From positions 57,334 through 121,333 of the forward strand of contig QZKN01000050.1 of assembly GCA_003598175.1 (NCBI GenBank): a stretch of 64,000 nt of DNA, written 5' to 3'. The notes beneath the pieces are model-generated. The model had not been told where the DNA came from. It was given only the letters and a program-made list of their open reading frames with translations, and searched no databases. This stretch comes from Candidatus Omnitrophota bacterium (lineage in GTDB: Bacteria > Hinthialibacterota > Hinthialibacteria > Hinthialibacterales > Hinthialibacteraceae). A program made the translations under genes and the position numbers. Shown piece after piece: positions 2,311 to 53,369 of this stretch; position 1 is the first letter of the stretch, and each line of letters opens with the position of its first letter.

Positions 2311-3348
2311 TTATAGAAACGGAAAAACAATTTGTTTGCCCGTTTCGGCGGAGCGGAAGATGGCTTCGGTGAATTCCATATATTTCATGCCGTCGTGGAA
2401 ATCGGGATGTACTTTTCTGCCTGTGCAAATGGCGTCGATGAAATCCTGTTCCACGCGCCATTCGTTGATCAGATTAGGGGCGATTTCGATTTTTTCCCAA
2501 GGTTGTCCTTTCCGCGAGATTTGAATTTCATCCATGTCGAAATTATATCGGACAGCGCCTTTACTTCCGTACACTTCAAGGGTGGATGCGGGAGGGGGCG
2601 CGGTCAATCCGCTCCATTCGCAACGCAGTAGAGCGCCGTTTTCCATTTCGCACAAAGCGAATACCAGATCGGGACGGGTTACCGGCATGAGTTCACCGTT
2701 TGTCGTGGGGCGTTCGGGAATGAACGTTTTCGCTTGGGCGGTCACGGTTTTTGCATACCCGAACCAGCGATGAATCACTTCCGCATAAATGCCGACGGTC
2801 AACGTGTTGACGCCGGACAAATCCTCCCGTTGACGCCAACTGATCGGGGAATGAGGATCGATATACACGCCGGACATGGCGCGCAGATGGATAGAATAGA
2901 TGGTTCCTAAAAATGGATCGCCTTTCATCAATTCCTGCATGATGGTATCCCCGGCCAATCCCATCGGCGGGGGGCAAAGCATGGCGACGCAATTGCTGCG
3001 CTCGGAGGCATCCAGCATTTCGCAGGCTTCCGCCAGATTCATGGCCATGCGCGCCTGGCAGAAGACGTGTTTGCCGGCGGCCAGCGCTTCCAGCGTCACG
3101 GTTTTGTGCAGGTAGGGCCAGGTTCCAATCCAGACCACGTTGATTTCATCGGAATGCACTAACTCCTGCCATGTTTCATGGATTTTCGGAATTCCGAATG
3201 CTTTTGCCGCCCGTTCGGACGATTCCCGTGTGCGGTTGCAGACGGAGATGAATTCCACGCCGGGTATTTTTTGCAGGTTGGGAATGTGCCGGTCGCGCAC
3301 GATTCCCCCCGCGCCCACGAAACCGATTCGAATCCGTTGTTCTTTCAT
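2311..3348 (-). CDS. Gfo/Idh/MocA family NAD(P)-dependent oxidoreductase
   Basis: N-terminal Rossmann motif RIGFVGAGGIVRDRHIPNL, CNRTRESSERAAKAFGIP, and a C-terminal alpha/beta domain. RBS AAGGTGA before MKEQ start. Confidence 0.8.
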   Translation of the reverse strand: MKEQRIRIGFVGAGGIVRDRHIPNLQKIPGVEFISVCNRTRESSERAAKAFGIPKIHETWQELVHSDEINVVWIGTWPYLHKTVTLEALAAGKHVFCQARMAMNLAEACEMLDASERSNCVAMLCPPPMGLAGDTIMQELMKGDPFLGTIYSIHLRAMSGVYIDPHSPISWRQREDLSGVNTLTVGIYAEVIHRWFGYAKTVTAQAKTFIPERPTTNGELMPVTRPDLVFALCEMENGALLRCEWSGLTAPPPASTLEVYGSKGAVRYNFDMDEIQISRKGQPWEKIEIAPNLINEWRVEQDFIDAICTGRKVHPDFHDGMKYMEFTEAIFRSAETGKQIVFPFL

Positions 3349-3504
3349 GATGATCACCTTTTATAAGAAAATTACGCGGGTAGAGCAGGCGTTCCCGCCT
3401 GCGCTGTTCGTACAAGCGAGGACGCTTGCTTTACCCACGGATGAACGAGCGCCGGTTATTTTCATCGTTCGATGTGACCAATTGGTCATTCCGGTTTCTA
3501 TGAA

Positions 3505-5613: not shown

Positions 5614-6708
5614 ATGAACAAGCATGAAAAATATTTTTGTAAAAAAATGCAGCCGGGCGTCATTCGACCGGATCTGACTTTGAACGAGCTGGTGGATCGC
5701 TGTTTTACATCCTTTAATGGAAGAGCCTTTCGCGACGCCTGCCGTTTGTTTACCGGACCGATTACCGAACACAATACCACCGTGGGATGGAGTCTGGCCG
5801 GCGCCTTGGTTCCCGCAGGACTCGGACAGTCCTGCCTGGTTCCGCTGATCAAGAACGGAGTGGTGGATTGGATGATCAGCACGGGGGCGAATCTTTACCA
5901 CGACCTGCATTTTTGTTTGGGATATTCGATGTACGAAGGTTCGGCGGCGGCCAATGATTGCCAATTGCGCGAAGATGACGTGGTTCGTATCCATGATATT
6001 TTCTTCGAATCCGACGCGCTGTTCGATACGGACAAATTTATCCGCGATGTTTTCCGTGAAAATCCGTTGTCGGAAGCGGTTTCCAGCGCCGATATTCATC
6101 GCCGGATTGGGGATGAATTATTAAAACGATGGCCGAATTCGCATGAGTTTAGCGTGCTGGCGGCGGCGGCTTTGCTGGATGTGCCCGTGCATACGTCCAG
6201 CCCGGGGGATTCGAGCACGGGCATGAACCTGGCGGCGTTGGCGCTGGAAGGGATTCCCATGCGGGTGGATCCGAATTCGGACGTGAATCTGACAGCGGCA
6301 TGGGTCTACGACGCCAAAAAATCCGGTGGGAAAACGGCCGCCGTTATTTTGGGAGGAGGCAGCCCGAAAAATTTTCTGCTGCAAACAGAGCCACATATAC
6401 AAGAAGTGCTGGGATTGCAGGAAGCGGGGCATGATTTTTTCATCCAGTTCACCGATGCGCGCGTGGATACAGGCGGACTATCCGGCGCGACCCCCTCGGA
6501 AGCGGTCAGCTGGGGAAAAATCGATCCCTCGCAGTTGAGTTCCACCCTGGTTTGCTATGGCGATTGCACGGTCTATTTACCGTTATTTACTTCCTATATT
6601 CTAAATTCGAAATGCCGGCGGGAGCCGAAGCGACTGTGGAGACGGGGCAAGGAATGCCTGGAGCGGTTGACGAATGACTATCGAAACTCTTCGCATTGGA
6701 TGAAATGA
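5614..6708 (+). CDS. deoxyhypusine synthase family protein (DHS-like)
   Basis: WSLAGALVPAGLGQ...LIKNGVVDWMISTGANLYHDLHF and AVILGGGSPKNF match the conserved NAD/spermidine-binding segments of deoxyhypusine/homospermidine synthase family proteins. Confidence 0.6.
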   Translation: MNKHEKYFCKKMQPGVIRPDLTLNELVDRCFTSFNGRAFRDACRLFTGPITEHNTTVGWSLAGALVPAGLGQSCLVPLIKNGVVDWMISTGANLYHDLHFCLGYSMYEGSAAANDCQLREDDVVRIHDIFFESDALFDTDKFIRDVFRENPLSEAVSSADIHRRIGDELLKRWPNSHEFSVLAAAALLDVPVHTSSPGDSSTGMNLAALALEGIPMRVDPNSDVNLTAAWVYDAKKSGGKTAAVILGGGSPKNFLLQTEPHIQEVLGLQEAGHDFFIQFTDARVDTGGLSGATPSEAVSWGKIDPSQLSSTLVCYGDCTVYLPLFTSYILNSKCRREPKRLWRRGKECLERLTNDYRNSSHWMK

Positions 6709-7413: not shown

Positions 7414-7631
7414 AAAGGATTCGCTTTCTTGATTGTCCTATCCATTGGTTGAAACATATTCGCAAATTATTTGACCTTCATCAACAAAAATACAGAACAT
7501 CACGGTTTTTCCATCCGGATTCGGAACGATAGTCCAACGTTAATTTTATCGGTATTTGCGTTATTTGCCTATATCTTGATGATTTGTTCGCCATGATGTA
7601 CATATGGATTATACTTGGGGAGGATTTGCAA

Positions 7632-8186
7632 ATGGTCCGGGAAGGATTTACGCTTATTGAATTATTGATCGTTGTCGCCATTATCGGGATTCTTGCGGCG
7701 ATTGCCGTGCCGAATTTTCTCAACGCCCAATTGCGCGCCAAAATCGCCGGAACGGAACAGGATTTGAAAACCTATGTCGATGCCATGCTGCAATATCATA
7801 TGGATAACAATAGTTACCATGCTCATCGCGATGGAGCGGCGCAGCAATTTCCATTAACGACGCCGGTTCCCTATCTTAACCATTTTCTAAGGGATCGGTT
7901 TCAAGGGCTCCCGGATATGAATGACCGGCAGGGATTTGAATATTCTTTTACCTATTATCATTGGATCCCTTACTCAACCCATCAGGATTTGTGGGGGCCG
8001 CCATGGCGAAGGATGGATCCGACCATCGACCAGGCGCATCAACGGGGTGCGGGATTGGTGGACGGTTGGGGACCGGCGGGGATACGCGGCGGTCCACGCT
8101 ATAATCCGACCAATGGACTGATCAGCCAGGGAGGCTTCTTCCGGTTGGTTCCAAAGGGGACGCGCATTCATCTTCATAGTCAATAG
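7632..8186 (+). CDS. prepilin-type N-terminal cleavage/methylation domain protein (paralog of 1618..2283)
   Basis: N-terminus GFTLIELLIVVAIIGILAAIAVPNFLNAQ is nearly identical at protein level to the 1618 gene, with synonymous nucleotide differences. GGGAGG RBS before ATG 7632. Confidence 0.8.
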   Translation: MVREGFTLIELLIVVAIIGILAAIAVPNFLNAQLRAKIAGTEQDLKTYVDAMLQYHMDNNSYHAHRDGAAQQFPLTTPVPYLNHFLRDRFQGLPDMNDRQGFEYSFTYYHWIPYSTHQDLWGPPWRRMDPTIDQAHQRGAGLVDGWGPAGIRGGPRYNPTNGLISQGGFFRLVPKGTRIHLHSQ

Positions 8187-8238
8187 AAATGTCCGGTTCT
8201 GAAAGAAAAATTCTCGGTTCGAGAAAAGGAAAATTATT

Positions 8239-10008
8239 ATGGCGTCTCGTAGCATCGTATGTTGTTTTTGGATCATTCTTTCTTCCCAATTTTTCATTTA
8301 CGCATGGAGTAGTACTCCGGATTTTCATTTCAATCAACCGGAAGAAAAACGTACTTCTCCCTTTTCTCCTCAAACGGTCGATGGTTTTGACGATCCGCGT
8401 TTAAGCGTTCGGGAAATGGGATTGTTCGAAGACACGGAGATGGTTCCCATGCGGGACGGAGTGCGTCTCTCGTCGACGATCTATAAACCGGTTTTGGGGA
8501 TGCCCTGGCCGGCGATCCTGATTCGTACTCCGTACGGGAAAGGAAGTTTTAGTGAAATGCAGGCGCTTGCCTATTTGGCAGGATATGCCATCATCGTGCA
8601 GGATATGCGAGGGCGATTTGATTCGGAGGGGGAGGATCGTGTATTCCAGACGGATGGATGGGGAGAATTGCAGGATGGGTATGACACGATTGAGTGGATT
8701 GCCCGGCAATCGTGGTGCAATGGCAAGGTGGGGATGTGGGGACCTTCGGCGCTGGGAATCGTTCAAGGATTGGCCGCCGGAGCGGTTCCGCCCCATTTGG
8801 TCTGTCAGGTGATCGGTTATGCGGCGGCAAAAGGCTATGGACATGCCGCGTATCAATGCGGCGTATTTCGTTTGGAACTGGTGGACAAATGGCTAAACAA
8901 ACATGGCATGGGGCATATGTATCCGGAATTTCTGCGCCATCCGACCGAGGATGATTTCTGGAAACAATACGATATTGAATCCCGCCATCACCTGATCAAT
9001 GTGCCGTCCTTGTTTATCGGTGGTTTTTACGATTGTTTTGAACAGGGCACTCTGGATGATTTTGTCGGACGCCAAACGAATGGCGCGCCCGGCGCACAAG
9101 GTCGGCAGCAACTGATTATGGGACCGTGGACCCACACCAACGAGTTCGATACGACGCAAGGTCAACTCTCATTTCCCTTGAATTCCATTTTTATCGACCA
9201 AGTGCAAACGACTCTCAAGTGGTTCAATTATTGGTTGAAAGATGAACAAAATGGCGTCAGGGATAATCCAACCGTGCAGTATTATGTCATGGGGGATGTG
9301 ACCGATCCGAATGCTCCGGGGAACGAATGGCGCACGGCGGAGATGTGGCCGCCGGAATCGCGGGAGATTGCCTTTTACCTGAATTCAGACCATTCTCTGT
9401 CTATTGTTGTTCCCTCTGTGGAAGAACAGGTTGATTCATTTGTTCTGGATCCGAATCATCCCTGTCCCACCATCGGCGGCAAGAATCTGGAGATCGCCGC
9501 GGGTCCGTATGATCAATCCGATCTCGAAGCAAGAAACGACGTGCTGGTTTTTTCGACGGAGCCGCTTCCCGAGCCGCTCGAAGTCGTCGGAAGAATACGC
9601 GCGGTTCTCTTTGCCGCATCCAATTTAACCGATAACGACTTGACAGTACGGTTGACGGATGTGTATCCGAACGGCCGTTCCATGCTGGTTTGTGACGGAA
9701 TCGCGCGGGCGAGTTTCCGGGATTCTTTTGTTGAATCCACGCCGATCACGCCGGGAGACGTGTATCGGTACGAAGTGGATTTGTGGAGCACGAGCCTGGT
9801 ATTTAACCGTGGGCATCGAATTCGCATCATTATTGCCAATACCAATTATCCGCGGTTCGATTTGAATCCGCAATACAAACAACTTGGGCAACATGGCTTG
9901 CCGGATTTTGTGGAGACGGTACTTCATTTTTCACGAACATATCCTTCTCACCTGTTGTTACCCGTAACGGCCGGAGATGTTTTTGTGAAGGATTGGAATC
10001 GCTATTAA
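8239..10008 (+). CDS. CocE/NonD family hydrolase (X-Pro dipeptidyl-peptidase S15-like), secreted
   Basis: MRDGVRLSSTIYKP...ILIRTPYGKG...IVQDMRGRFDSEGE...MWGPSALG matches the CocE/NonD alpha/beta hydrolase N-terminal region. N-terminal signal peptide present. AAAGGA RBS. Confidence 0.85.
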   Translation: MASRSIVCCFWIILSSQFFIYAWSSTPDFHFNQPEEKRTSPFSPQTVDGFDDPRLSVREMGLFEDTEMVPMRDGVRLSSTIYKPVLGMPWPAILIRTPYGKGSFSEMQALAYLAGYAIIVQDMRGRFDSEGEDRVFQTDGWGELQDGYDTIEWIARQSWCNGKVGMWGPSALGIVQGLAAGAVPPHLVCQVIGYAAAKGYGHAAYQCGVFRLELVDKWLNKHGMGHMYPEFLRHPTEDDFWKQYDIESRHHLINVPSLFIGGFYDCFEQGTLDDFVGRQTNGAPGAQGRQQLIMGPWTHTNEFDTTQGQLSFPLNSIFIDQVQTTLKWFNYWLKDEQNGVRDNPTVQYYVMGDVTDPNAPGNEWRTAEMWPPESREIAFYLNSDHSLSIVVPSVEEQVDSFVLDPNHPCPTIGGKNLEIAAGPYDQSDLEARNDVLVFSTEPLPEPLEVVGRIRAVLFAASNLTDNDLTVRLTDVYPNGRSMLVCDGIARASFRDSFVESTPITPGDVYRYEVDLWSTSLVFNRGHRIRIIIANTNYPRFDLNPQYKQLGQHGLPDFVETVLHFSRTYPSHLLLPVTAGDVFVKDWNRY

Positions 10009-10165
10009 CAATGGTTTGTATTTTTGAAGAACCGCAATATGGAGTAAACGCTTGTCGAAAACGGTCATTTTCCGTTAAATTCATACGGGTACTATTAATT
10101 CCAAGGGGAAATGATGGTATAACATTCCGAATACAATGAGATCATCAAACGAGAGGAATTCGATC

Positions 10166-12031
10166 ATGCTGAAAATAAGCGGCTTCGGCGACGAGATCGC
10201 CAAAGAATTTGAGACGCAACTACTAGAAATGCGGAAAATGAATTTGAATTATATCGCGCTGAGGAATTTATGGGGAACCAACATCCTCGACCTGAATCCC
10301 AAACAAAAAACACGCGCCAAAAACCTCTTGCGCGAATTTGGCATGGGCGTGTCCGAGATCGGCTCGCCGTTGGGAAAAATTCAAATCAACGATTCCTGGG
10401 AAAAGGAATGGGAGCGGTACGAACGGGCGATCGCAATGGCGCATTTTTTCCAATGCCCGCGCATCCGTATTTTTTCGTTTTATTTTCCGGAAGGCGATGC
10501 GCCGGAAAAACACCGCGCGTCCGTGATCACAAAATTGAAGGAAATGACGGATCGCGCGGAGAAGGAAGGGATCGTGCTGTTGCTCGAGAATGAAGGCCGA
10601 ATTTATGGAGAAGATGGCATTCACTGCCGTGATTTGGCGGAATCGATCAACTCGCCCAATTTTAAATTGATCTTCGATCCGGGTAATTTTGTCGTGTGCG
10701 GTACCAAGGCGTTTACGCAATGGTATGAGTTGATGGTGGATCACGTTGTGCATCTGCATATCAAGGATTGCACCTTCGACGGCACATTCACGCCGGCGGG
10801 GCAGGGTGAAGCCGAGATTCCCGAATTGATCGCCGCATTGAAGGAAAGGGGATTCTCTGGCTTCGCGACGATGGAGCCGCATTTGATGGAAGGCGGGCAA
10901 TTCGGCGGATTTTCCGGTCCGAAGCGGTTTGGGGAAGCGGTGGATGCGTTTCGGGACGTATGCGACCAAGCCGGAATGCCGCACCGGCAGGTTCGTGTGG
11001 GCGTGATCGGGATGGGATTCATCGGGATGTTCCATTGCCAGTGCATTCAGGAAGTGCCGCAAGCCCATCTTGTGGCCGTCGCCGATGTGCAAAAGGCGCC
11101 GAATTTGCAGAAAGCACAAGACCTTTTTAATATAGCGGCGTATGACAAACCGGATGATTTATTAAAACGAAAAGACATCGATGCAATCTCAATCGGTACG
11201 CCCAGCGGTCTGCATGGTGATCTGACCTTGAAAGCGGCGAAGCAGAAAAAACATGTGCTGACGGAAAAACCGATCGAAATCACGTTGGAAAAAGCGGATT
11301 GCATGATCAAAACCTGCCGCGAAAACAAGGTGAAACTCGGCGTGATATCACAGCGGCGAACCGATCCGGGCATGATCGAATTGATGGAGATTCTCAACGC
11401 CGGAAAGTTGGGAAAATTGATTCTCGGCGAAACGTACGTGAAATGGTATCGCAATCAGCAGTATTACGACAGCGGCGGATGGCGCGGCACCTGGAAGCTG
11501 GACGGCGGCGGATGCCTGATGAACCAGGGAATTCATTCCATCGACATGTTGCAGTGGGTGATGGGTGAAGTGGAAAGTGTGATGGCGCAAATGGACACGA
11601 TGGCGCACGAACGGATCGAAGTGGAAGATGTGGCGCAGGCGTTGCTGCGATTCAAAAACGGCGCGCTGGGAACGATCATTGGATCGACGGCGGTGTATCC
11701 GGGCATGAACGAGCGGCTGGAAATCAGTGGTACGAACGGAACCGTCGTAGTGGAAAAGAATCGTATTACTATGCGTGAGATTATGGGAGAGCAAAAAGCC
11801 GACAGCGAAACCATCGCCGATCGCGGAACCGGCGCCGCCGATGCGCAGGCGATTACCAATGAAGGCCATGTGATGCAGATCACCGATTTCATGCAGGCAA
11901 TTCTCGAGAATCGGGAACCGATGATCAACGGCGAGGAAGGGCGCAAGCCGCTGGAAATCATTCTGGCTGTTTACGAAGCGGCGAAAACCGGGAAACGCGT
12001 AAAACTGCCGCTGAAGACGAAGAAGAAATAA
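10166..12031 (+). CDS. fusion protein: xylose-isomerase-like TIM-barrel (sugar phosphate isomerase/epimerase) domain + Gfo/Idh/MocA oxidoreductase domain
   Basis: N-terminal ~290 aa are TIM-barrel-like (LKISGFGDEIAKEF...IVLLLENEG...FDPGNFVV). C-terminal ~340 aa are Gfo/Idh/MocA (VRVGVIGMGFIGMFHCQ...EKPIEITLEKAD). Single uninterrupted frame. GAGAGGA RBS before ATG 10166. Confidence 0.75.
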   Translation: MLKISGFGDEIAKEFETQLLEMRKMNLNYIALRNLWGTNILDLNPKQKTRAKNLLREFGMGVSEIGSPLGKIQINDSWEKEWERYERAIAMAHFFQCPRIRIFSFYFPEGDAPEKHRASVITKLKEMTDRAEKEGIVLLLENEGRIYGEDGIHCRDLAESINSPNFKLIFDPGNFVVCGTKAFTQWYELMVDHVVHLHIKDCTFDGTFTPAGQGEAEIPELIAALKERGFSGFATMEPHLMEGGQFGGFSGPKRFGEAVDAFRDVCDQAGMPHRQVRVGVIGMGFIGMFHCQCIQEVPQAHLVAVADVQKAPNLQKAQDLFNIAAYDKPDDLLKRKDIDAISIGTPSGLHGDLTLKAAKQKKHVLTEKPIEITLEKADCMIKTCRENKVKLGVISQRRTDPGMIELMEILNAGKLGKLILGETYVKWYRNQQYYDSGGWRGTWKLDGGGCLMNQGIHSIDMLQWVMGEVESVMAQMDTMAHERIEVEDVAQALLRFKNGALGTIIGSTAVYPGMNERLEISGTNGTVVVEKNRITMREIMGEQKADSETIADRGTGAADAQAITNEGHVMQITDFMQAILENREPMINGEEGRKPLEIILAVYEAAKTGKRVKLPLKTKKK

Positions 12032-12062: not shown

Positions 12063-13004
12063 TTATGGAATTCTTTTGAGAATCCGCCGTCGTACAAATC
12101 CACGAATCCAATAATACGGCGCTTTGGGGAATTGAGTCAGGTAGGCGCTTGCCAATGGAATGAGCTGTTGGCGAAAATTACATTCCTTGTACCATCGAAT
12201 TTCCGCAGGCAGGAACGTTCCGACAAAATAACGAATCCCGAAATTCTTCAGCAGGAATCGGATGCGCCCGCGATGATATTTGTAAAAATAGATGTGGCTG
12301 TTTTTTTTCGTACCAAATGTTTCAAAATGCAAAACCACCGAGTCGGGTTGATAGTACACGCCGAAACCGGCTTTGCGGGCGCGATAGCATAAGTCCAAAT
12401 CGTCGTAATACAGTGGAAAGCCTTCGTCCAATCCTCCCGTTCGTTCCAGCACTTCCCGGCGAATCGCCATCGATGCCCCGGTGATGTATTCCACCTCGTG
12501 AGGAACGTTGTATTTTGCGGAATCCGGTTTTCCGTATCCCTCGTGATAGGTCAGACAGTTGGGGCGCATCCAACCGCCGGCGAATTGAATATGTTTTCCG
12601 TCAAGAAAAAAGAGTTTGGAGCCGACGACGCCGATTTTCGCATCACTCATCATGGGTTCGATCAATGCATTCAGCCAGTCTTTACGGACGACGGTGTCGA
12701 TGTTCAGCAGAACAATGATGTCGCCCTTTGCCTGGCGGATACCTTGATTGCAGCCTTTGGGAAAACCATAATTCTTAGGATTTTCAATGATGGTGATTTG
12801 ATCGGCAAAAGAACGCGCCAGTTCAAGAGAATCGTCGCGCGAGGCGTTGTCGACGAGAATGATCTCCTTCGGCTCATAGGAATCCGCCAAAACGGATTGA
12901 AGGCAGCGCTGGATGAATTTATTGCCATTGAAATTCAGGATGATGACGGAAACGAAAGGAGAGGATTTCTCCGCATGTTCTTCGGATACTAACAATATAC
13001 TCAT
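12063..13004 (-). CDS. glycosyltransferase family 2
   Basis: VSVIILNFNGNKFIQRCLQSVLADSYEPKEIILVDNASRDDS is the GT2 DxD-containing N-terminal pattern. Confidence 0.85.
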   Translation of the reverse strand: MSILLVSEEHAEKSSPFVSVIILNFNGNKFIQRCLQSVLADSYEPKEIILVDNASRDDSLELARSFADQITIIENPKNYGFPKGCNQGIRQAKGDIIVLLNIDTVVRKDWLNALIEPMMSDAKIGVVGSKLFFLDGKHIQFAGGWMRPNCLTYHEGYGKPDSAKYNVPHEVEYITGASMAIRREVLERTGGLDEGFPLYYDDLDLCYRARKAGFGVYYQPDSVVLHFETFGTKKNSHIYFYKYHRGRIRFLLKNFGIRYFVGTFLPAEIRWYKECNFRQQLIPLASAYLTQFPKAPYYWIRGFVRRRILKRIP

Positions 13005-13541: not shown

Positions 13542-13805
13542 TTACAACTCCATTTCCAATATTTCTTGTTTCATTTTTTCCAATGGGATTCTTTTGCCTG
13601 CCATAAATTCCTTTCGAGATTGTTGGATAATGTTCATGAATTCATGATTAGTGCTCAATGACAGGGATTCTTCATCCATTTCTTTTAAAGAGATAATCGC
13701 AGCAATGGGTTTATGGTGAGATGTCAGAATAATCATATCCTGATCAATCTCATCGGCGACTTCTGACAAGGATTGCTTGGCCGTGGAAAGTTCAATGGTT
13801 TTCAT
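13542..13805 (-). CDS. Phd/YefM family type II antitoxin
   Basis: MKTIELSTAKQSLSEVADEIDQD-MIILTSHHKPIAAIISLKEMDE fits the Phd/YefM fold. 4-nt overlap with the upstream RelE-like ORF. Confidence 0.7.
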   Translation of the reverse strand: MKTIELSTAKQSLSEVADEIDQDMIILTSHHKPIAAIISLKEMDEESLSLSTNHEFMNIIQQSRKEFMAGKRIPLEKMKQEILEMEL

Positions 13806-29448: not shown

Positions 29449-29637
29449 GTTGTCATTCCTCCATGTGCTCATAAGGTTTTCGATAATCCATACGACTACC
29501 GCATTCTTTCTTATCCCTGCGTTTTGCATTGCAGAGGATTCTCGCGTAAGACGATTTGAATGAAATGATGTTTTGCGATACGATGGTCTATCCATATTTT
29601 GAAAACGATCTTTCAAATTGTAAGGGGAGAAGCAGGA

Positions 29638-31691
29638 TGAACGCAAAACATTTCATATTCACCGCATTCTTGATTTGTGTAGGGATGGCGCAAATAAGCC
29701 CGGCCGATCAACTTCCCATCCAAACCAGACCGGCGCTGGATCAGGACAACAGCATTTTGAATTATCTTCAGCGAGCGGCCAGCGAGGTGACTCATCATTC
29801 GCTCGACGGGATCGACTCGCTGGACGCTTGGAAACGGGTACGGGAACAGCGATACAATGAATTTCTGGAAATGATGAGTCTGACCGACGTTCCCATGACC
29901 GGCGAGCGTCCGCCGCTGAACGTTCACGTCGTCGATACCATTCAGCAGGATGGTTTTCGCATCGTCAAACTCTATTATGAATCGCTGCCGAATCTTTATG
30001 TGCCCGCGGATTTGTACATTCCCGACGGAATCACCAAACCGGTTCCCGGCGTGCTGTACGTTTGCGGGCATTCTCGCATCCAGAAAGTGCATTATCAGCC
30101 GTTTTCCCGTCGTTTTGCACAACTGGGCTTCGTCTGTCTGATCATCGAAACGATTCAATGGGGCGAAGTGTTGGGTTCGCATTGGGGATGCTATTCGGAA
30201 GGCCGCTTTCATTGGTACAGCCGGGGGTACACGCCGGGCGGGGTGGAACTGTGGAACTCGATTCGTGGGCTCGATTTGTTATGTTCCCGCGAGGAAGTCG
30301 ATCCGGAAAAGCTGGGCGTGACCGGAATTTCCGGCGGAGGCGCATACACGTGGTATCTCGCCGCCGCCGATCCGCGTATTAAAGTCGCCGCGCCGGTCTG
30401 CGGCACGGGAACCGTGGAAGCGCACGTCCATCAGCGCACGATTGACGGGCACTGCGACTGCATGATGCCGATCAACACCTACCTGCGCGACGTGCACGAC
30501 ATGGGCGCGCTGATTGCGCCGCGTCCGTTGATGGTGGCATCCGCCAATCGCGACGGACTCTTCTCCATCGAATCCATCCGCCAATCGGTTGCTTACATCA
30601 GACAAATATATAACCTGTACGGCGCGGATGATAACCTGAAACTGGTGGAAACGCCCGGCGGACATTCCTATCATGAAACGTCCCGCACCAAAATTTTCTC
30701 GTTCTTCATCCACCATTTGATGGGAAAAGACGCGCCGCCCGAAACCGTCGGCGATATTGAATTGGATAAAGAAAAATTACTTTCCGTCGATCAACTTCGG
30801 ATTTACGTTGACGGTCCACCGGCGGATGATCGGACCACGACCATTCAGGACTCGTTTCAAAAAATGGCGGAGCCGCCGGTCATCGAAAATCTCGATGCGT
30901 TGAAAGCGCATCGGGAAAAAGTCGTGGCGTTCCTGCGAGAAAAAACTTTTCGCCATTTCCCCGAAAATCCCCCCGATCCGAAAATCCGCCTGGAATTTCG
31001 CGACGGCGAAGGCAATGGCGGCAGCGATGATGTAAGTTTTATCTCGGAAGAAGGGTACCGGCTGAAGGTTTCGCTGCAATGGCGTCACAATCACAATGAA
31101 AAAAATCCGACGTTGCTCGTTTTACGCAGCCCCAACGAAAATCGTTGGGAGTCGGAAGGCTTTTCGGGTGGATTGCCGAACAACTGGAATCGAGCCTTTT
31201 TCGAAACGCGAGGCATCGGCGAAACCAGCTGGGGACCGGAATTGCAATGGCACATCCGCCGCGCCGCGGCATGGGCGGGGCGCACGGTCGCCTCGATGCG
31301 GGTCTATGACGTGCTCCGCTGTTTGCAGACCCTGCGCGAATTGGAAAGTGTGGACGGCGAAACCATCGCCATCGCGGCGCGCGGGGAAATGTGCGTCATC
31401 GCGTTATACGCGGCGCTCCTCGATGGAAAAGTACACACGCTGTTATTGCAGAATCCCCCGCCGACCCAAAACGCGGAAAGCGCCAAGGACGGCCGCGGAG
31501 AAGCAATCGAGATGCTGAATTGCCTGCGCATCACCGATTTGCCGCAGGTCGCGGGAATCGTATGGCCGACGAAAGTGTTCTTTATTGGAAAACCGCATGA
31601 AAATTATCAGTGGGCGATGGAGACCTGTCAAAATATAGGGCAAAAAGAACGGATCGGCGTCTTGCAGGGAATAGCGGATTGGAAACCGTGA
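29638..31691 (+). CDS. alpha/beta hydrolase family protein (acetyl-xylan-esterase / S9-peptidase-like), secreted
   Basis: Nucleophile elbow GISGGG, dienelactone-hydrolase-like core, signal peptide. AGGGGAG RBS before ATG 29638. Confidence 0.65.
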
Positions 31692-43797: not shown

Positions 43798-44649
43798 ATG
43801 AAAATCGGATTGAACCTGTTGTTGTGGGACGGGACCATCACGGAAAAACACGTCGCCGTGCTTGAAGAACTCGCCGCGTTGGGCTATGACGGTGTGGAGT
43901 TTCCTATTTTTAGTTTTGACCGCAACGTCGCCAAGAAATTACGCACCCATTTGGATCGTTTGAAATTGAAATGCACGATCACATCATGCGTACCGCAAGA
44001 TGGATCAGCCAATCCCATCAGCGAGGATAAAAAAATTCGCCAGGCGGCGTTGAATCACATGAAAAAAACCATCGGCATCGCTGAAATTTTAGGCGCGGAA
44101 GTGATCGCCGGACCATTCACTTCTCCCGTCGGACGTCTCGTCGGGCGTCCGCGAACGGACGAGGAATGGAAATGGGGCGTGGAGGTCATGCAAAAAGTCG
44201 CGAAAGCAACGGAAAACAGCGGCGTATTGCTGGCGCTGGAAGCATTGAATCGATTTGAGACTTATTTCATCAACACCGCCGCCGACGCCTGCAAATTCGC
44301 GGAAGAAGTGAACCATCCCAATTTCGGCATCATGTGGGATACGTTTCACGCCAACATCGAAGAGAAAAATATTCAAAAAGCGATGATGGCGGTCGCGCAC
44401 AAAATCGTTCACGTGCATATTTCCGAAAATCATCGCGGTATTCCGGGCGCGGGCCACATTCGATTCGGCGATGTCTTCAATTGCCTCAAAAAAATGAAAT
44501 ACGACCGCTGGCTGACGATCGAAGCGTTTGGCAGCGCGCTTCCCGAACTCGCCGCGGCGACGTGCATTTGGCGAGAACTCTTTCCGAGCAGCCACGATCT
44601 GGCGGAAAAAGGCCTGCAATTCATCAAAAAACAATGGGAAAAAGGATAA
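43798..44649 (+). CDS. sugar phosphate isomerase/epimerase (xylose-isomerase-like TIM barrel)
   Basis: MKIGLNLLLW...GYDGVEF...LALEALNRFE...FGIMWDTFH is the characteristic pattern. Very strong AAGGGAGGAAAAGGGA RBS. Confidence 0.8.
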   Translation: MKIGLNLLLWDGTITEKHVAVLEELAALGYDGVEFPIFSFDRNVAKKLRTHLDRLKLKCTITSCVPQDGSANPISEDKKIRQAALNHMKKTIGIAEILGAEVIAGPFTSPVGRLVGRPRTDEEWKWGVEVMQKVAKATENSGVLLALEALNRFETYFINTAADACKFAEEVNHPNFGIMWDTFHANIEEKNIQKAMMAVAHKIVHVHISENHRGIPGAGHIRFGDVFNCLKKMKYDRWLTIEAFGSALPELAAATCIWRELFPSSHDLAEKGLQFIKKQWEKG

Positions 44650-48011: not shown

Positions 48012-49346
48012 ATGTATGATCAAGACGGAGTTTCCCGGCGAGGTTTTTTGAAGACGGTTTCCGGCGGTTTTTTGGCGGCCGGTTCGCTTCCGCTGTTGAT
48101 TCCCGCCGGCGCCATCGGGCGGGAAGGGAAGACGGCGGCCAATGATCGCATTCATATCGGCTGCATCGGCGTGGGGCCGCAGGGGACGCATGACATGCGT
48201 CAAATTTTGAAACACGACGTTGCGCGGGTCATCGCGTTGAGCGACGTGAAGAGCAACGTGCTGGAGGAAAAGCGGCGTTTGGTGAATGAATTTTATGGCG
48301 ACGAGGACTGCGTCGGGTATCACGATTTTCGCGAATTGGTTGCGCGGGAGGATATCGACGGTTGTCTGGTGGCGACGACGGATCATTGGCACGTGTTGGC
48401 CTCTTTGGCGGCGGTGCGGGCAGGGAAGGACGTGTATATGGAGAAGCCGATGGGGTTGACGCTGGAGCAGGATCAGGCCATGCGGCAAGCGGTGCACGAG
48501 CATCAGCGTATTTTTCAATTCGGCACGCAACAGCGGTCGGATCCGGAGTTCCGTCAGGCTTGTGAACTGGTTCGGAATGGCAAAATCGGCGAGTTGAAAA
48601 CCATCAACGTGTGGTCGCCCGGCAGTTCTTCCGGCGGGCCGACCGAGCGCGCGCCGGTTCCGCCGTGGCTGGACTACGAAATGTGGCTGGGGCCCGCGCC
48701 TTATACACCATATACAACGGATCGTTGTGAGAATGCGTGGTGGTGGTTTATTTCCGATTATGCGTTGGGATTCATTGCCGGCTGGGGAATCCATCCCATC
48801 GATATCGCGTTGTGGGGGGCGGAAGACAAGTTTGCCGGTCCGTGGGAAGTGGAAGGGAAAGGGTGGTTTCCGAGCGAAGGCGTGTGCGACACCGCGATGA
48901 ATTGGGACGTGAAAATCAGACTGGGGAGCGGTGTGGTCATCGATTTTCGCGGGGATCCCTATCCGGACGAATGGAAGCAGCGTTATGAGGACGATTCCAG
49001 CCACGGCACCGCTTTCGAAGGCAGCGAAGGATGGATCAGCGTGCGGCGCGGCAAGATCAACGCGCATCCGAAGAGTATACTGGAGACGAAGCTGGGGCCG
49101 AACGATACGCCGCTGTATTACAGCGAGCATCATGCGGGGAATTTTCTGGATTGTATTCGCAGCCGTAAGGAAACGGTGTGCCCGGTGGATGCGGCGGTGC
49201 GAGGGGATACGCTGTGCCACATCAGCGATATTGCCATTCGATTGCAGCGGAAACTGGTTTTCGATCCGGAGACGGAGACGTTTGTCGGGGACGAGGACGC
49301 GAATCGGAAACTTTCGCGTCCGATGCGCGCGCCCTGGCATTTGTGA
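48012..49346 (+). CDS. Gfo/Idh/MocA family oxidoreductase with twin-arginine (Tat) signal
   Basis: SRRGFLKTVSGGFLAAGSL Tat motif. IGCIGVGPQG Rossmann motif. EKPMGLTLEQ. GGAGGA RBS before ATG 48012. Confidence 0.85.
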   Translation: MYDQDGVSRRGFLKTVSGGFLAAGSLPLLIPAGAIGREGKTAANDRIHIGCIGVGPQGTHDMRQILKHDVARVIALSDVKSNVLEEKRRLVNEFYGDEDCVGYHDFRELVAREDIDGCLVATTDHWHVLASLAAVRAGKDVYMEKPMGLTLEQDQAMRQAVHEHQRIFQFGTQQRSDPEFRQACELVRNGKIGELKTINVWSPGSSSGGPTERAPVPPWLDYEMWLGPAPYTPYTTDRCENAWWWFISDYALGFIAGWGIHPIDIALWGAEDKFAGPWEVEGKGWFPSEGVCDTAMNWDVKIRLGSGVVIDFRGDPYPDEWKQRYEDDSSHGTAFEGSEGWISVRRGKINAHPKSILETKLGPNDTPLYYSEHHAGNFLDCIRSRKETVCPVDAAVRGDTLCHISDIAIRLQRKLVFDPETETFVGDEDANRKLSRPMRAPWHL

Positions 49347-52208: not shown

Positions 52209-53369
52209 TTATTTATCCAACCGTTTCATTCGCACATTGCGAAACGCCATCGTTCCGTCGTAATTCTGCAAACCGATAAATCCCTTTCGTGGGCGTTCCT
52301 TCAGCGGTTTGGCGTCGGTCGTAGATTTTTCGTATTCATCCAGATTCGCATCGACGACGATGACGCCGTTGATGTAAATCGTGATTTGGGCGCCGTTTGC
52401 GACGATTTGCATCGTTTGCCAGTTTCCAGCCGTTTTCGTGGCTCGCACGGCCGGCGCGATTTCGTGATACACCGAGCCGGTTTTCTGCCAATCCTGCAGT
52501 TTTCCCCAATGCACAGCGTCATCGTCGAGGATCTGGATTTCCATGCCTTCATATGAAGCGCGGCCTTTTCCGGGATAGCGGATATAGACGCCGCTGTTGC
52601 CTTCTTTCGGCACATTGTATTCCAAACTCAACACGAAATCGGAATAGTCGTCCGTTTTTGTGCCGATCCATCCTCCTTTTTCACCGCTGCAGACAAGTTC
52701 GCCATTCTCATTCAGGCTCCATGCTTCTTTCGATCCTTCCTGGACCATTAGATGCTCGAATTCCTTGCCATGCCCTGTCAGCAAATTCACGGCTCCGATT
52801 TCCTGAATGCGAATATTGCGAAACTCGAAGGATTTGTTTTCCGCCTGGATGCCGATCAGCCCTCGCTGCAGGTCGATCATGTCCAGCATGTCCGTTTCCC
52901 ACACTTCCTCGTCGTTCAACTCCAATTTTCCGTTGATCCCGTTGGCGGTCAAACGAAATTTCATCCACTCGCCGACAGGAAGCGGTTCGACTTCGGATTT
53001 CAGCACCGCGCGATTGCCGCGCACCAGCGCGCCCAGCATATCATTCTTTAAATTGATCTGCAGACCCGCATCCGGCCAGGGTTTGCCTTCGAGTCCCGAG
53101 CGAATGAAAATGCCGCTGTCGTAATTCTCCACCAGCGCCTTGCATTCGAATTCGAGTATGAAATCGTCGTACACCTGCTCGGTGCGCAGCCAGCCCATGC
53201 CTTTGATCAGCCGCAGATTGCCGTCGTGCACGTCGAAATCGACATCATGCACGCCGGTCCAGCCGGTTAAATCTTTTCCATTAAACAAATTGAGCCATTT
53301 GCTGTTATCGGTCGATCCCGTCAGTACAAACGATGAAACAAACAACATGAATACAACAAATTTTTTCAT
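52209..53369 (-). CDS. tandem DUF1080 (3-keto-disaccharide hydrolase-like) domain protein, secreted
   Basis: Two copies of LFNGKDLTGW...SGIFIRS...GLIGIQAENKSFEFRNIRIQE / GFIGLQNYDGTMAFRNVRMKRL. Signal peptide. GAGGAA RBS. Confidence 0.75.
   Translation of the reverse strand: MKKFVVFMLFVSSFVLTGSTDNSKWLNLFNGKDLTGWTGVHDVDFDVHDGNLRLIKGMGWLRTEQVYDDFILEFECKALVENYDSGIFIRSGLEGKPWPDAGLQINLKNDMLGALVRGNRAVLKSEVEPLPVGEWMKFRLTANGINGKLELNDEEVWETDMLDMIDLQRGLIGIQAENKSFEFRNIRIQEIGAVNLLTGHGKEFEHLMVQEGSKEAWSLNENGELVCSGEKGGWIGTKTDDYSDFVLSLEYNVPKEGNSGVYIRYPGKGRASYEGMEIQILDDDAVHWGKLQDWQKTGSVYHEIAPAVRATKTAGNWQTMQIVANGAQITIYINGVIVVDANLDEYEKSTTDAKPLKERPRKGFIGLQNYDGTMAFRNVRMKRLDK

Follow-up and report, generated by a model that had tools for sequence, protein, structure and literature searches.

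A candidate bifunctional enzyme of oxidative glycoside cleavage: an Iso1-type TIM barrel fused to a Gfo/Idh/MocA dehydrogenase in Candidatus Omnitrophota

Introduction

A stretch of 64,000 nucleotides of contig QZKN01000050.1 (Candidatus Omnitrophota bacterium, assembly GCA_003598175.1), in the following called the window, contains a gene at 10166..12031 on the plus strand, whose product joins a triosephosphate isomerase (TIM) barrel to a Gfo/Idh/MocA dehydrogenase. On balance, the gene probably encodes a cytoplasmic bifunctional enzyme of oxidative (3-keto) glycoside cleavage, a natural fusion of the Iso1 and Oxido1 activities of the P2B11 system, as suggested by homology and by conservation of the predicted active sites.

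Two versions of oxidative glycoside cleavage have been described, a periplasmic one (AL/BT) and one encoded by the Gram-positive fosmid P2B11 (Nasseri et al., bioRxiv 10.1101/2024.03.25.586180). The AL/BT version employs a TIM lyase with a His/Asp/His site, a lyase/hydratase of the DUF1080 family and a Tat-exported Gfo 3-dehydrogenase. The P2B11 genes, which come from a Gram-positive bacterium of the human gut, are arranged in the order Iso1-Oxido1-Oxido2-Iso2 and include no DUF1080 protein; the structure of Oxido1 is PDB 8tdi. The substrates of P2B11 are alpha- and beta-glucuronides; 6-phospho, 6-sulfo and sulfoquinovosyl glycosides are also cleaved, at a lower rate (bioRxiv 10.1101/2024.03.25.586180). 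Cleavage of glucuronides needs Oxi1 and at least one 'isomerase', and Iso1 and Iso2, both activated by Co2+ and Mn2+, each carry out elimination on 3-keto-glycosides (supplement of the same paper, bioRxiv 10.1101/2024.03.25.586180).

Integrity of the fusion gene

Scanning of the window for open reading frames (ORFs) revealed an uninterrupted ORF at 10136..12031 on the plus strand, corresponding to 631 amino acids. GenBank entry RJP31369.1 (631 amino acids, "hypothetical protein", Candidatus Omnitrophota bacterium, from a metagenome-assembled genome), which starts at the upstream ATG at 10136, is identical apart from the choice of the start, and the sequence of the fusion protein is already public, without an assigned name. 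We prefer the ATG at 10166 as start codon because two observations agree with it: all 30 aligned homologues start at an equivalent MLK(L/I)SGFGDE, matching the Met at 10166, and a Shine-Dalgarno-like sequence precedes it. A scan for promoters and terminators around the gene gave nothing above shuffled expectation. The features of the gene as a whole are the following.

10166..12031, plus strand: fusion ORF, predicted Iso1-type TIM barrel and Gfo/Idh/MocA sugar 3-dehydrogenase, 621 amino acids, stop codon within the coordinates
10151..10157, plus strand: Shine-Dalgarno-like sequence GAGAGGA, 8 nt before the ATG at 10166, read from the sequence
10136..10165, plus strand: ten additional codons under GenBank's upstream ATG, containing the Shine-Dalgarno-like sequence; probably not translated
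10973..10990, plus strand: inter-domain linker AGMPHR, residues 270-275, from the alignment and from the AlphaFold2 (AF2) model (helix 251-269, then strand 276-281)

In a Pfam scan AP_endonuc_2 was matched at residues 23-263 (92.7 bits, cut-off 31.1), GFO_IDH_MocA (PF01408) at residues 276-393 (94.5 bits), and the two C-terminal families PF22725 (C3, 116.4 bits) and PF02894 (C, 94.8 bits) at residues 405-614, all above threshold. The AF2 model of the full-length protein was confident (predicted local distance difference test, pLDDT, 87.6; predicted template modelling score, pTM, 0.87), and in it the last helix of the TIM barrel (251-269) is followed by about six residues and then by the Rossmann strand 276-281. 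The same fused architecture was found in relatives, in about 45 clusters at 90 % identity. The junction CDxAGMPHRQVRxGVxGMGFIG is conserved and free of indels throughout the 30 aligned full-length homologues, which stem from independent assemblies and include proteins of as little as 42 % identity, and no frameshift or assembly join was found at the domain boundary. Domain scans, structure prediction and comparison with relatives, all of which the earlier note on this DNA had suggested as checks, thus confirm its claim that the TIM barrel and the dehydrogenase form a single polypeptide.

The probability that two neighbouring genes were merged here by a sequencing frameshift or an assembly join is negligible: although one database 'fusion' (P0048) resembles a frameshift merge, on an error-rich contig, and unfused gene pairs are often separated by 0-25 nt, the identical ORF is present on two records, more than 45 cluster representatives from independent assemblies have the conserved linker in frame, and the AF2 model runs continuously from helix to strand, so that this explanation is effectively refuted.

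The TIM-barrel domain

The N-terminal half (N-half) comprises the TIM barrel and its predicted metal site.

10166..10972, plus strand: TIM-barrel domain, residues 1-269, AP_endonuc_2, Iso1-type subfamily (Pfam 92.7 bits; AF2; 34 % identity to P2B11-Iso1)
10586..10588, plus strand: codon of E141 at the end of strand 5 (LLLENE), predicted to bind the metal and to act as a catalytic base; invariant in alignments A1, A2 and A3
10676..10678, plus strand: codon of D171, after strand 6 (FDPGN), predicted metal ligand; invariant
10757..10759, plus strand: codon of H198, strand 7 (HLHIKD), predicted metal ligand; at least 90 % conserved
10874..10876, plus strand: codon of E237, which follows strand 8 (TMEPH) and is likewise a predicted metal ligand and base; invariant

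Modelled alone, this half (pLDDT 94, pTM 0.90) is an eight-stranded barrel, in which the predicted metal ligands sit where the strands end on the C-terminal side. The ligands, whose loss the earlier note had regarded as fatal to its proposal, are present, and E141 aligns with the ligand Glu of proteins of the D-tagatose 3-epimerase type. According to the alignment and the AF2 model, all invariant residues of the subfamily (D9/E10, R33, S67-P68-x-G70-K71, R101-x-F103-S104, E141-N142, D171/N174, H198-x-K200-D201 and E237-P238-H239) are located at the C-terminal end of one of the eight strands, that is, on the canonical active-site face. Four conserved residues of this site, R33, K71, R101 and K200, are cationic. 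Strand 1 of the model begins at residue 2, and the fusion therefore has no signal peptide.

The N-half is 34 % identical to P2B11-Iso1 over the full length (E 1e-39, despite optical character recognition errors in the printed Iso1 sequence), and the two share the motifs SGFAD, IGSPIGK, IRVFSF, HENE, HIKD and LEPHL. In an all-against-all comparison of TIM proteins Iso1, the N-half, the first TIM protein of an Alicyclobacillus locus (L005, see below) and a TIM protein of a human-gut locus (L099) formed one group with 34-44 % identity, whereas Iso2 grouped with another TIM protein, and the stand-alone TIM barrel of the window (43798) belonged to neither group. Similarity to YcjR, IolI and D-tagatose 3-epimerase was marginal (E 1e-5 or worse), and the curated NCBIfam models gave only weak matches to epimerases and isomerases. 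Judged by these comparisons, the N-half is a member of the same TIM subfamily as P2B11-Iso1.

The dehydrogenase domain

The C-terminal half (C-half) has the domains and motifs of a Gfo/Idh/MocA enzyme, including D307 after the second Rossmann strand.

10991..11344, plus strand: Rossmann NAD-binding domain, residues 276-393 (PF01408, 94.5 bits)
11009-11026, plus strand: GxGxxG motif (G282-x-G284-x-x-G287), read from the alignment
11264-11272, plus strand: EKP motif (E367-K368-P369), read from the alignment
11378..12007, plus strand: C-terminal substrate and oligomerisation domain, residues 405-614 (PF22725 116.4 bits, PF02894 94.8 bits)
11444..11536, plus strand: predicted active-site segment W427-x-R429-x3-Y433-Y434...W439-R440-G-T...D446-GGG...N453-Q-x-x-H457, from alignment to 8tdi and 3q2k/3q2i

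Among solved structures the C-half was most similar to 3q2k (E 1e-52) and 3q2i (E 1e-50), followed by 3ezy and then by 8tdi (E 1e-27). The first two are, we presume, the WlbA UDP-GlcNAcA 3-dehydrogenases of Bordetella and Chromobacterium. A segment W-x-R-x3-Y-Y...W-R-G/A-T-W...GGG...N-Q-x-x-H-x-x-D is common to the fusion, 3q2k/3q2i and 8tdi, and is not found in the inositol dehydrogenase 3ezy. The pocket of P2B11-Oxido1 has been described as consisting of W179, R181, Y185, N205 and H209, with N147 at the NAD (Nasseri et al., bioRxiv 10.1101/2024.03.25.586180). After correction for the 10-residue offset of the crystallised construct, five of these six residues were found to be kept with identical spacing (W427, R429, Y433, N453 and H457 correspond to W179, R181, Y185, N205 and H209), and each of the five is at least 90 % conserved among the fusions. 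Because it shares the active-site segment and five of the six Oxido1 pocket residues, the C-half appears to be one of a clade of sugar C3-dehydrogenases; the members of this clade that have been characterised use gluco-configured substrates with an anionic C6.

Curated models name neither half of the fusion. The C-half scored 31.1 and 32 bits with the NCBIfam models of BT_2158 and BT_2159 (cut-offs 750 and 650). As a control, Iso1 and an Oxido1 homologue were scanned in the same way and gave the same weak NCBIfam profile as the respective halves, the BT_2158/2159 models also missing the P2B11 type. Since P2B11-type proteins show the same profile, the low scores are no evidence against the pathway.

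Relation to known systems

Homology to P2B11 links the fusion, as far as sequence comparison can tell, to a CHARACTERISED system. The two resemble each other in that the same two families occur in the same order (Iso1 then Oxido1, TIM then dehydrogenase), both are cytoplasmic and have no DUF1080 protein, and the N-half has all catalytic motifs of Iso1. They differ in that Iso1 and Oxido1 of P2B11 are separate adjacent proteins, whereas the fusion is one polypeptide, the dehydrogenase half of which shows no more than about 30 % identity to Oxido1 and is nearer to the WlbA type. Moreover, the fusion gene has no adjacent Oxido2, Iso2 or transporter gene, its neighbours being a CocE/NonD hydrolase and a family 2 glycosyltransferase (GT2), and its host is an Omnitrophota bacterium.

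The fused architecture is shared by Iso1-Oxido1 fusions of gut Clostridia (MDU4934858.1 of locus L171, and the P0280 type of locus L169), which are TIM-then-dehydrogenase polypeptides that align with the window protein end to end (31-32 % identity, E ~1e-95). Unlike the window protein, they are encoded inside P2B11-type clusters (fusion-Gfo-TIM-MFS_2 and fusion-Gfo-SDR-MFS_2), and their dehydrogenase is of the Oxido1 type (51 % to the 8tdi homologue). These Clostridia fusions have generic annotation only, and no published description of them was found; neither was one found for the fused form in general.

The Peptostreptococcaceae locus L171 (8001-13771) encodes the fusion MDU4934858.1, a Gfo protein, a TIM protein and an MFS_2 symporter. 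Within the fusion, the TIM part shares 52 % identity with Iso1 and the dehydrogenase part 51 % with an Oxido1-type enzyme; the downstream TIM protein shares 45 % with Iso2. Alignment of the window protein with this fusion extended end to end over 664 amino acids (32 %, E 3e-97). By these identities, L171 is evidently a P2B11-type cluster whose first two genes are fused. The P0280 type is very abundant, with 635 member sequences; in L169 (3773-9342) the order is fusion-Gfo-SDR-MFS_2.

With the AL/BT system (AL1-AL4 of Alistipes, BT2156-BT2160 of Bacteroides) the fusion would share C3 oxidation by a Gfo/Idh/MocA enzyme followed by elimination/hydration by a metal-dependent TIM protein. In contrast to the periplasmic AL/BT proteins with their signal peptides, His/Asp/His metal site and DUF1080 lyase/hydratase, the fusion has a predicted Glu/Asp/His/Glu metal site and no signal peptide, and the DUF1080 gene is 40 kb away. 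WlbA/WbpB, the UDP-GlcNAcA 3-dehydrogenases of a pathway described in PMC10622841, share with the C-half the W-x-R-x3-YY...NQ-x-x-H segment and likewise oxidise C3 of a gluco-configured uronate sugar. The fusion differs from them in being joined to a TIM barrel and in having no UDP-ManNAc3NAcA genes nearby, and the closest stand-alone relatives of its dehydrogenase half are found in catabolic operons.

Taking these comparisons together, the proposal of oxidative glycoside cleavage made in the earlier note stands with respect to the chemistry and the pathway family (34 % identity to Iso1, five of six Oxido1 residues, the fusion of L171), but not with respect to the version taken as precedent: the note had pointed to C3 oxidation followed by TIM and DUF1080 enzymes, whereas the actual precedent is P2B11, which works without DUF1080, and not AL/BT.

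Proposed reaction

In the first step, the C-terminal Gfo/Idh/MocA domain would oxidise the C3 hydroxyl of a pyranoside with NAD+, as inferred from the match of its active site to two characterised sugar C3-dehydrogenases. Oxidation at C3 would acidify H2, and in the second step the TIM domain, with a divalent metal at E141/D171/H198/E237 and with E141 and E237 as bases, would form an enolate and expel the C1 substituent (1,2-elimination); this step is suggested because the domain is homologous to P2B11-Iso1, which catalyses that elimination. The TIM domain possibly also hydrates the resulting 2-hydroxy-3-keto-glycal, as the AL and BT enzymes do. The short, rigid and conserved linker may keep the labile 3-keto intermediate between the two sites.

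Lacking a signal peptide, the fusion would act on imported substrates. Our best guess for the substrate is an acidic glycoside, because R33, K71, R101 and K200 are cationic and the characterised relatives, which act on glucuronides, 6-phospho and 6-sulfo glycosides and UDP-GlcNAcA, prefer C6-anionic sugars. Should uronic-acid glycosides be the substrates of the fusion, a 711-amino-acid protein encoded at 29556-31691 on the plus strand of the window may be of relevance, as it has weak matches (E ~1e-5, below Pfam thresholds) to families of glucuronyl esterases and acetyl-xylan esterases.

It is conceivable, although we consider it distinctly unlikely, that the fusion is a self-contained, redox-neutral 'one-protein glycosidase' performing a non-Koshland cycle on a single polypeptide without Oxido2, Iso2 or DUF1080 proteins. 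In such a cycle bound NAD+ would oxidise C3, the TIM domain would eliminate the aglycone and rehydrate the glycal, and the dehydrogenase would re-reduce the 3-keto sugar with the retained NADH.

Distribution and gene linkage

The clusters of the fused form belong, as labelled in the records, to Omnitrophota, Sumerlaeota and unclassified metagenome-assembled genomes labelled 'bacterium'. The TIM subfamily is much larger, with at least 593 species-representative genomes and 769 database clusters at E <= 1e-20, all under generic names, and spans Chloroflexota, Bacillota, Actinomycetota, Planctomycetota and Halobacteriales. In the scan of genome contigs a single-protein query gave no matches, whereas an alignment of TIM halves did.

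TIM proteins of the subfamily that are not fused were found, in many phyla, to have a homologous dehydrogenase gene as neighbour. Such pairs, with either gene first and usually with a gap of 0-25 nt, were present in about 23 of the 67 unfused loci from genomes and in 27 of the 80 from metagenomes. The Alicyclobacillus acidoterrestris locus L005 begins with AraC and a sugar ABC transporter, followed by a TIM gene, a dehydrogenase gene and a second TIM gene. The first of these TIM proteins is 37 % identical to the N-half over the full length (E 2e-71), and the dehydrogenase, whose gene starts 33 bp after the TIM gene, is 53 % identical to the C-half. A Bacillota locus with the arrangement TIM-Gfo-Gfo (L036) was considered as an orthologue of P2B11 and rejected, both of its dehydrogenases being WlbA-like.

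A human-gut locus (L099, 3770-9043) encodes UxaC, an SDR protein, an Iso2-type TIM, an Iso1-type TIM (34 %, E 1e-55) and a dehydrogenase (E 6e-105 against 8tdi). L099 is a reordered version of the published P2B11 cluster, adjoining a UxaC glucuronate isomerase that would consume the released glucuronate.

An exhaustive search of 1.84 billion representatives returned at least seven further clusters of TIM-then-dehydrogenase fusions (32-43 % identity) and three clusters with the reverse order. All of these additional clusters (counted at 50 % identity) have the four Pfam domains, and in most of them both halves retain their catalytic motifs. Some of them could have arisen by merging of genes during gene calling, which is clearly the case for P0048. 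That the fusion recurs in both orders, and with dehydrogenases of two subtypes, suggests at least two or three independent fusion events and speaks for a genuine coupling of the TIM and dehydrogenase functions. The 'obligate coupling' of the two steps assumed in the earlier note is overstated, about half of the unfused TIM orthologues having no adjoining dehydrogenase.

Alternative functions

Several observations weigh against the assignment to oxidative glycoside cleavage. The protein shares only 30-34 % identity with the characterised enzymes, the C-half is nearer to 3q2k/3q2i than to Oxido1, and N147 of Oxido1 is replaced by S395. The Omnitrophota fusion gene is solitary, with non-conserved neighbours and with no Oxido2, Iso2 or transporter gene nearby, and a search for a conserved operon partner in Omnitrophota and relatives revealed none, even at 87 % identity. 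In three close relatives (L001, L008 and L010) a family 4 glycosyltransferase (GT4) gene lies directly downstream of the fusion. In nine loci of Chloroflexota/Anaerolineae (L015, L016, L018, L021, L026, L029, L032, L046 and L048; ~8000-11000 in each) the partners of the unfused TIM are a sugar-1-phosphate nucleotidyltransferase and a GHMP kinase, with no close dehydrogenase; the order on the same strand is TIM, NTP_transferase (~300 amino acids), galactokinase-like GHMP kinase (~337 amino acids), then rnpA and yidC. This trio hints at a link to sugar salvage or activation that the lyase model leaves unexplained. Planctomycetota pair the TIM with a second TIM. Finally, an unfused TIM (L014, 8001-8825; 46 % identical) is located between ComF-like and sigma-54 response-regulator genes, the same flanks as those of the fused gene of L002 (9001-10887) in a related lineage, and this shared synteny indicates that the dehydrogenase domain was gained or lost within the clade.

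As the WlbA-like C-half, the solitary gene and the pairings in Chloroflexota, Planctomycetota and L014 do not fit glycoside cleavage, oxidation combined with epimerisation or isomerisation is a live rival, if an unlikely one. The 3-keto sugar would not be cleaved; rather, the TIM domain would invert or shift the neighbouring centre by metal-enolate chemistry, as modelled on E. coli YcjS/YcjR and on IolG/IolI, and the product would be a rare sugar, possibly for glycan synthesis or salvage. The Glu/Asp/His/Glu tetrad is typical of the epimerase/isomerase branch of the fold, and the GT4 genes and the Chloroflexota trio would suit such a role. However, the sole characterised member of the TIM subfamily, P2B11-Iso1, eliminates and supports glycoside cleavage, similarity to YcjR, IolI and D-tagatose 3-epimerase is marginal, as mentioned above, and the GT4 block is missing from the window although the fusion is retained. 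For the latter reason a biosynthetic role deduced from the downstream GT4/methyltransferase/GT2 block of L001, L008 and L010 was rejected as an obligatory one, the window keeping the fusion and the distal GT2 without that block.

There is a small chance that the fusion is a nucleotide-sugar enzyme, in which a UDP-sugar 3-dehydrogenase of the WlbA/WbpB kind is combined with a TIM domain processing the UDP-3-keto sugar in the biosynthesis of cell-surface glycans. This would agree with the best matching structures (3q2k/3q2i), with the name 'UDP-N-acetyl-2-amino-2-deoxyglucuronate dehydrogenase' given by JGI to stand-alone homologues at ~50 % identity, and with the presence of glycosyltransferases near the fusion in the window and in close relatives. 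The match to the NCBIfam UDP-GlcNAc 3-dehydrogenase model (135.8 bits) is, however, far below the cut-off of 450, and no partners of the WbpA, WbpE, WbpD or WbpI type were found nearby in the window. Equally WlbA-like dehydrogenases (L005, L036) are part of AraC/ABC-transporter catabolic operons, beside an Iso1-type TIM, and the signature motif also occurs in the glycoside-specific Oxido1. We know of no TIM-barrel step in UDP-3-keto-sugar pathways.

A fusion for inositol catabolism, consisting of an IolG-like inositol 2-dehydrogenase and an IolE- or IolI-like inosose dehydratase or isomerase, is very improbable and was rejected on the basis of model cut-offs and the active-site alignment: iolG (TIGR04380) is the top NCBIfam match of the C-half, but its 178.9 bits are half of the cut-off (355), IolE (TIGR04379) scored 16.3 bits (cut-off 290), the active-site segment is that of WlbA and Oxido1 and differs from that of the inositol dehydrogenase 3ezy, a non-specific match to iolG (106 bits) is given by the characterised Oxido1 homologue as well, and there are no iol genes nearby.

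Gene neighbourhood in the window

The two neighbours of the fusion gene and four further loci with related domains are listed below.

8239..10008, plus strand: CocE/NonD (S15) hydrolase, upstream neighbour; not at this position in the closest syntenic relative
12063..13004, minus strand: GT2 glycosyltransferase, convergent neighbour; in L008 and L001 its orthologue (~61 %) is encoded five genes downstream of the fusion
2311..3357, minus strand: cytoplasmic Gfo/Idh/MocA paralogue; 25-26 % identity to the C-half, 23 % to Oxido2-like proteins
43798..44649, plus strand: stand-alone AP_endonuc_2 TIM barrel, neither Iso1- nor Iso2-type; 25 % to the N-half over a partial alignment
48012..49346, plus strand: Gfo/Idh/MocA protein with Tat signal (SRRGFLK); 28 % to the fusion, N-domain only
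52209..53369, minus strand: protein with two PF06439 (DUF1080, 3-keto-disaccharide-hydrolase-like) stretches, 233 bits

Since it is not at this position in the closest syntenic relative, the CocE/NonD gene is probably unrelated to the fusion. Type IV pilin-like proteins with N-terminal methylation motifs are encoded at 7584-8186 and 1597-2283, both on the plus strand. The former is 73 % identical to a protein of the Omnitrophota relative L008 whose gene immediately precedes the fusion there, which shows that the CocE/NonD gene has been inserted in the window. The block of GT4, two methyltransferase and GT2 genes that follows the fusion in L008 and L001 is absent from the window, in which the flanking pilin and the distal GT2 are kept.

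The family assignments given in the earlier note for the four dispersed loci proved correct (Gfo at 2311, TIM at 43798, Tat-exported Gfo with SRRGFLK at 48012, double DUF1080 at 52209), but its view of them as the component set of one route could not be upheld. The loci are 8-42 kb away from the fusion, the DUF1080 gene at 40 kb, among unrelated genes (RecQ, RNase D, GGDEF, beta-lactamase, Uma2, a radical-SAM protein and homocysteine methyltransferase); the Gfo and TIM proteins are only distant paralogues of the fusion halves, with 25-28 % identity to them, and comparison of the other Gfo and TIM genes of the window with Oxido2 and Iso2 gave no match. The best NCBIfam matches of the TIM barrel at 43798 were psicose 3-epimerase and IolO, below cut-off, and the best curated match of the Gfo protein at 48012 was the BT_2158 glycoside 3-dehydrogenase (124 bits, cut-off 750). 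The latter gene and the double-DUF1080 gene are 3 kb apart, with genes for a Uma2 endonuclease and a PAS-GGDEF protein between them, and the pair could constitute a periplasmic AL/BT-like route independent of the cytoplasmic fusion.

Two further genes of the window were recorded. A deoxyhypusine synthase family protein (PF01916, 217 bits) is encoded at 5614-6708 on the plus strand of this bacterial (Omnitrophota) contig, and an 87-amino-acid ORF at 13542-13805 on the minus strand resembles, by eye, antitoxins of the Phd/YefM type.

Significance

We regard the fusion as an architectural novelty within a system that was itself described only recently; nothing is overturned by it. Fusion of adjacent pathway genes is a common event. 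The Omnitrophota form is divergent, with its WlbA-like dehydrogenase subtype and without cluster partners. A one-protein glycosidase, if true, would account for the solitary position of the gene in these small genomes.

Cleavage of glycosides through 3-keto intermediates has been described only recently, as a multi-enzyme system, and the fusion, as a Rosetta-stone argument drawn independently from genomes, indicates that one and the same molecule is handled by the Iso1-type TIM and the C3-dehydrogenase. Through it a large TIM subfamily without a name (species representatives and clusters as counted above) is defined and opened to better annotation. Being compact and a single protein, it is also a target for biocatalysis and for structural studies of the hand-over of the labile 3-keto intermediate. 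If the assignment to oxidative glycoside cleavage is correct, the pathway would extend from the Bacillota and Bacteroidota of the gut to Omnitrophota and Sumerlaeota, and probably to many soil lineages.

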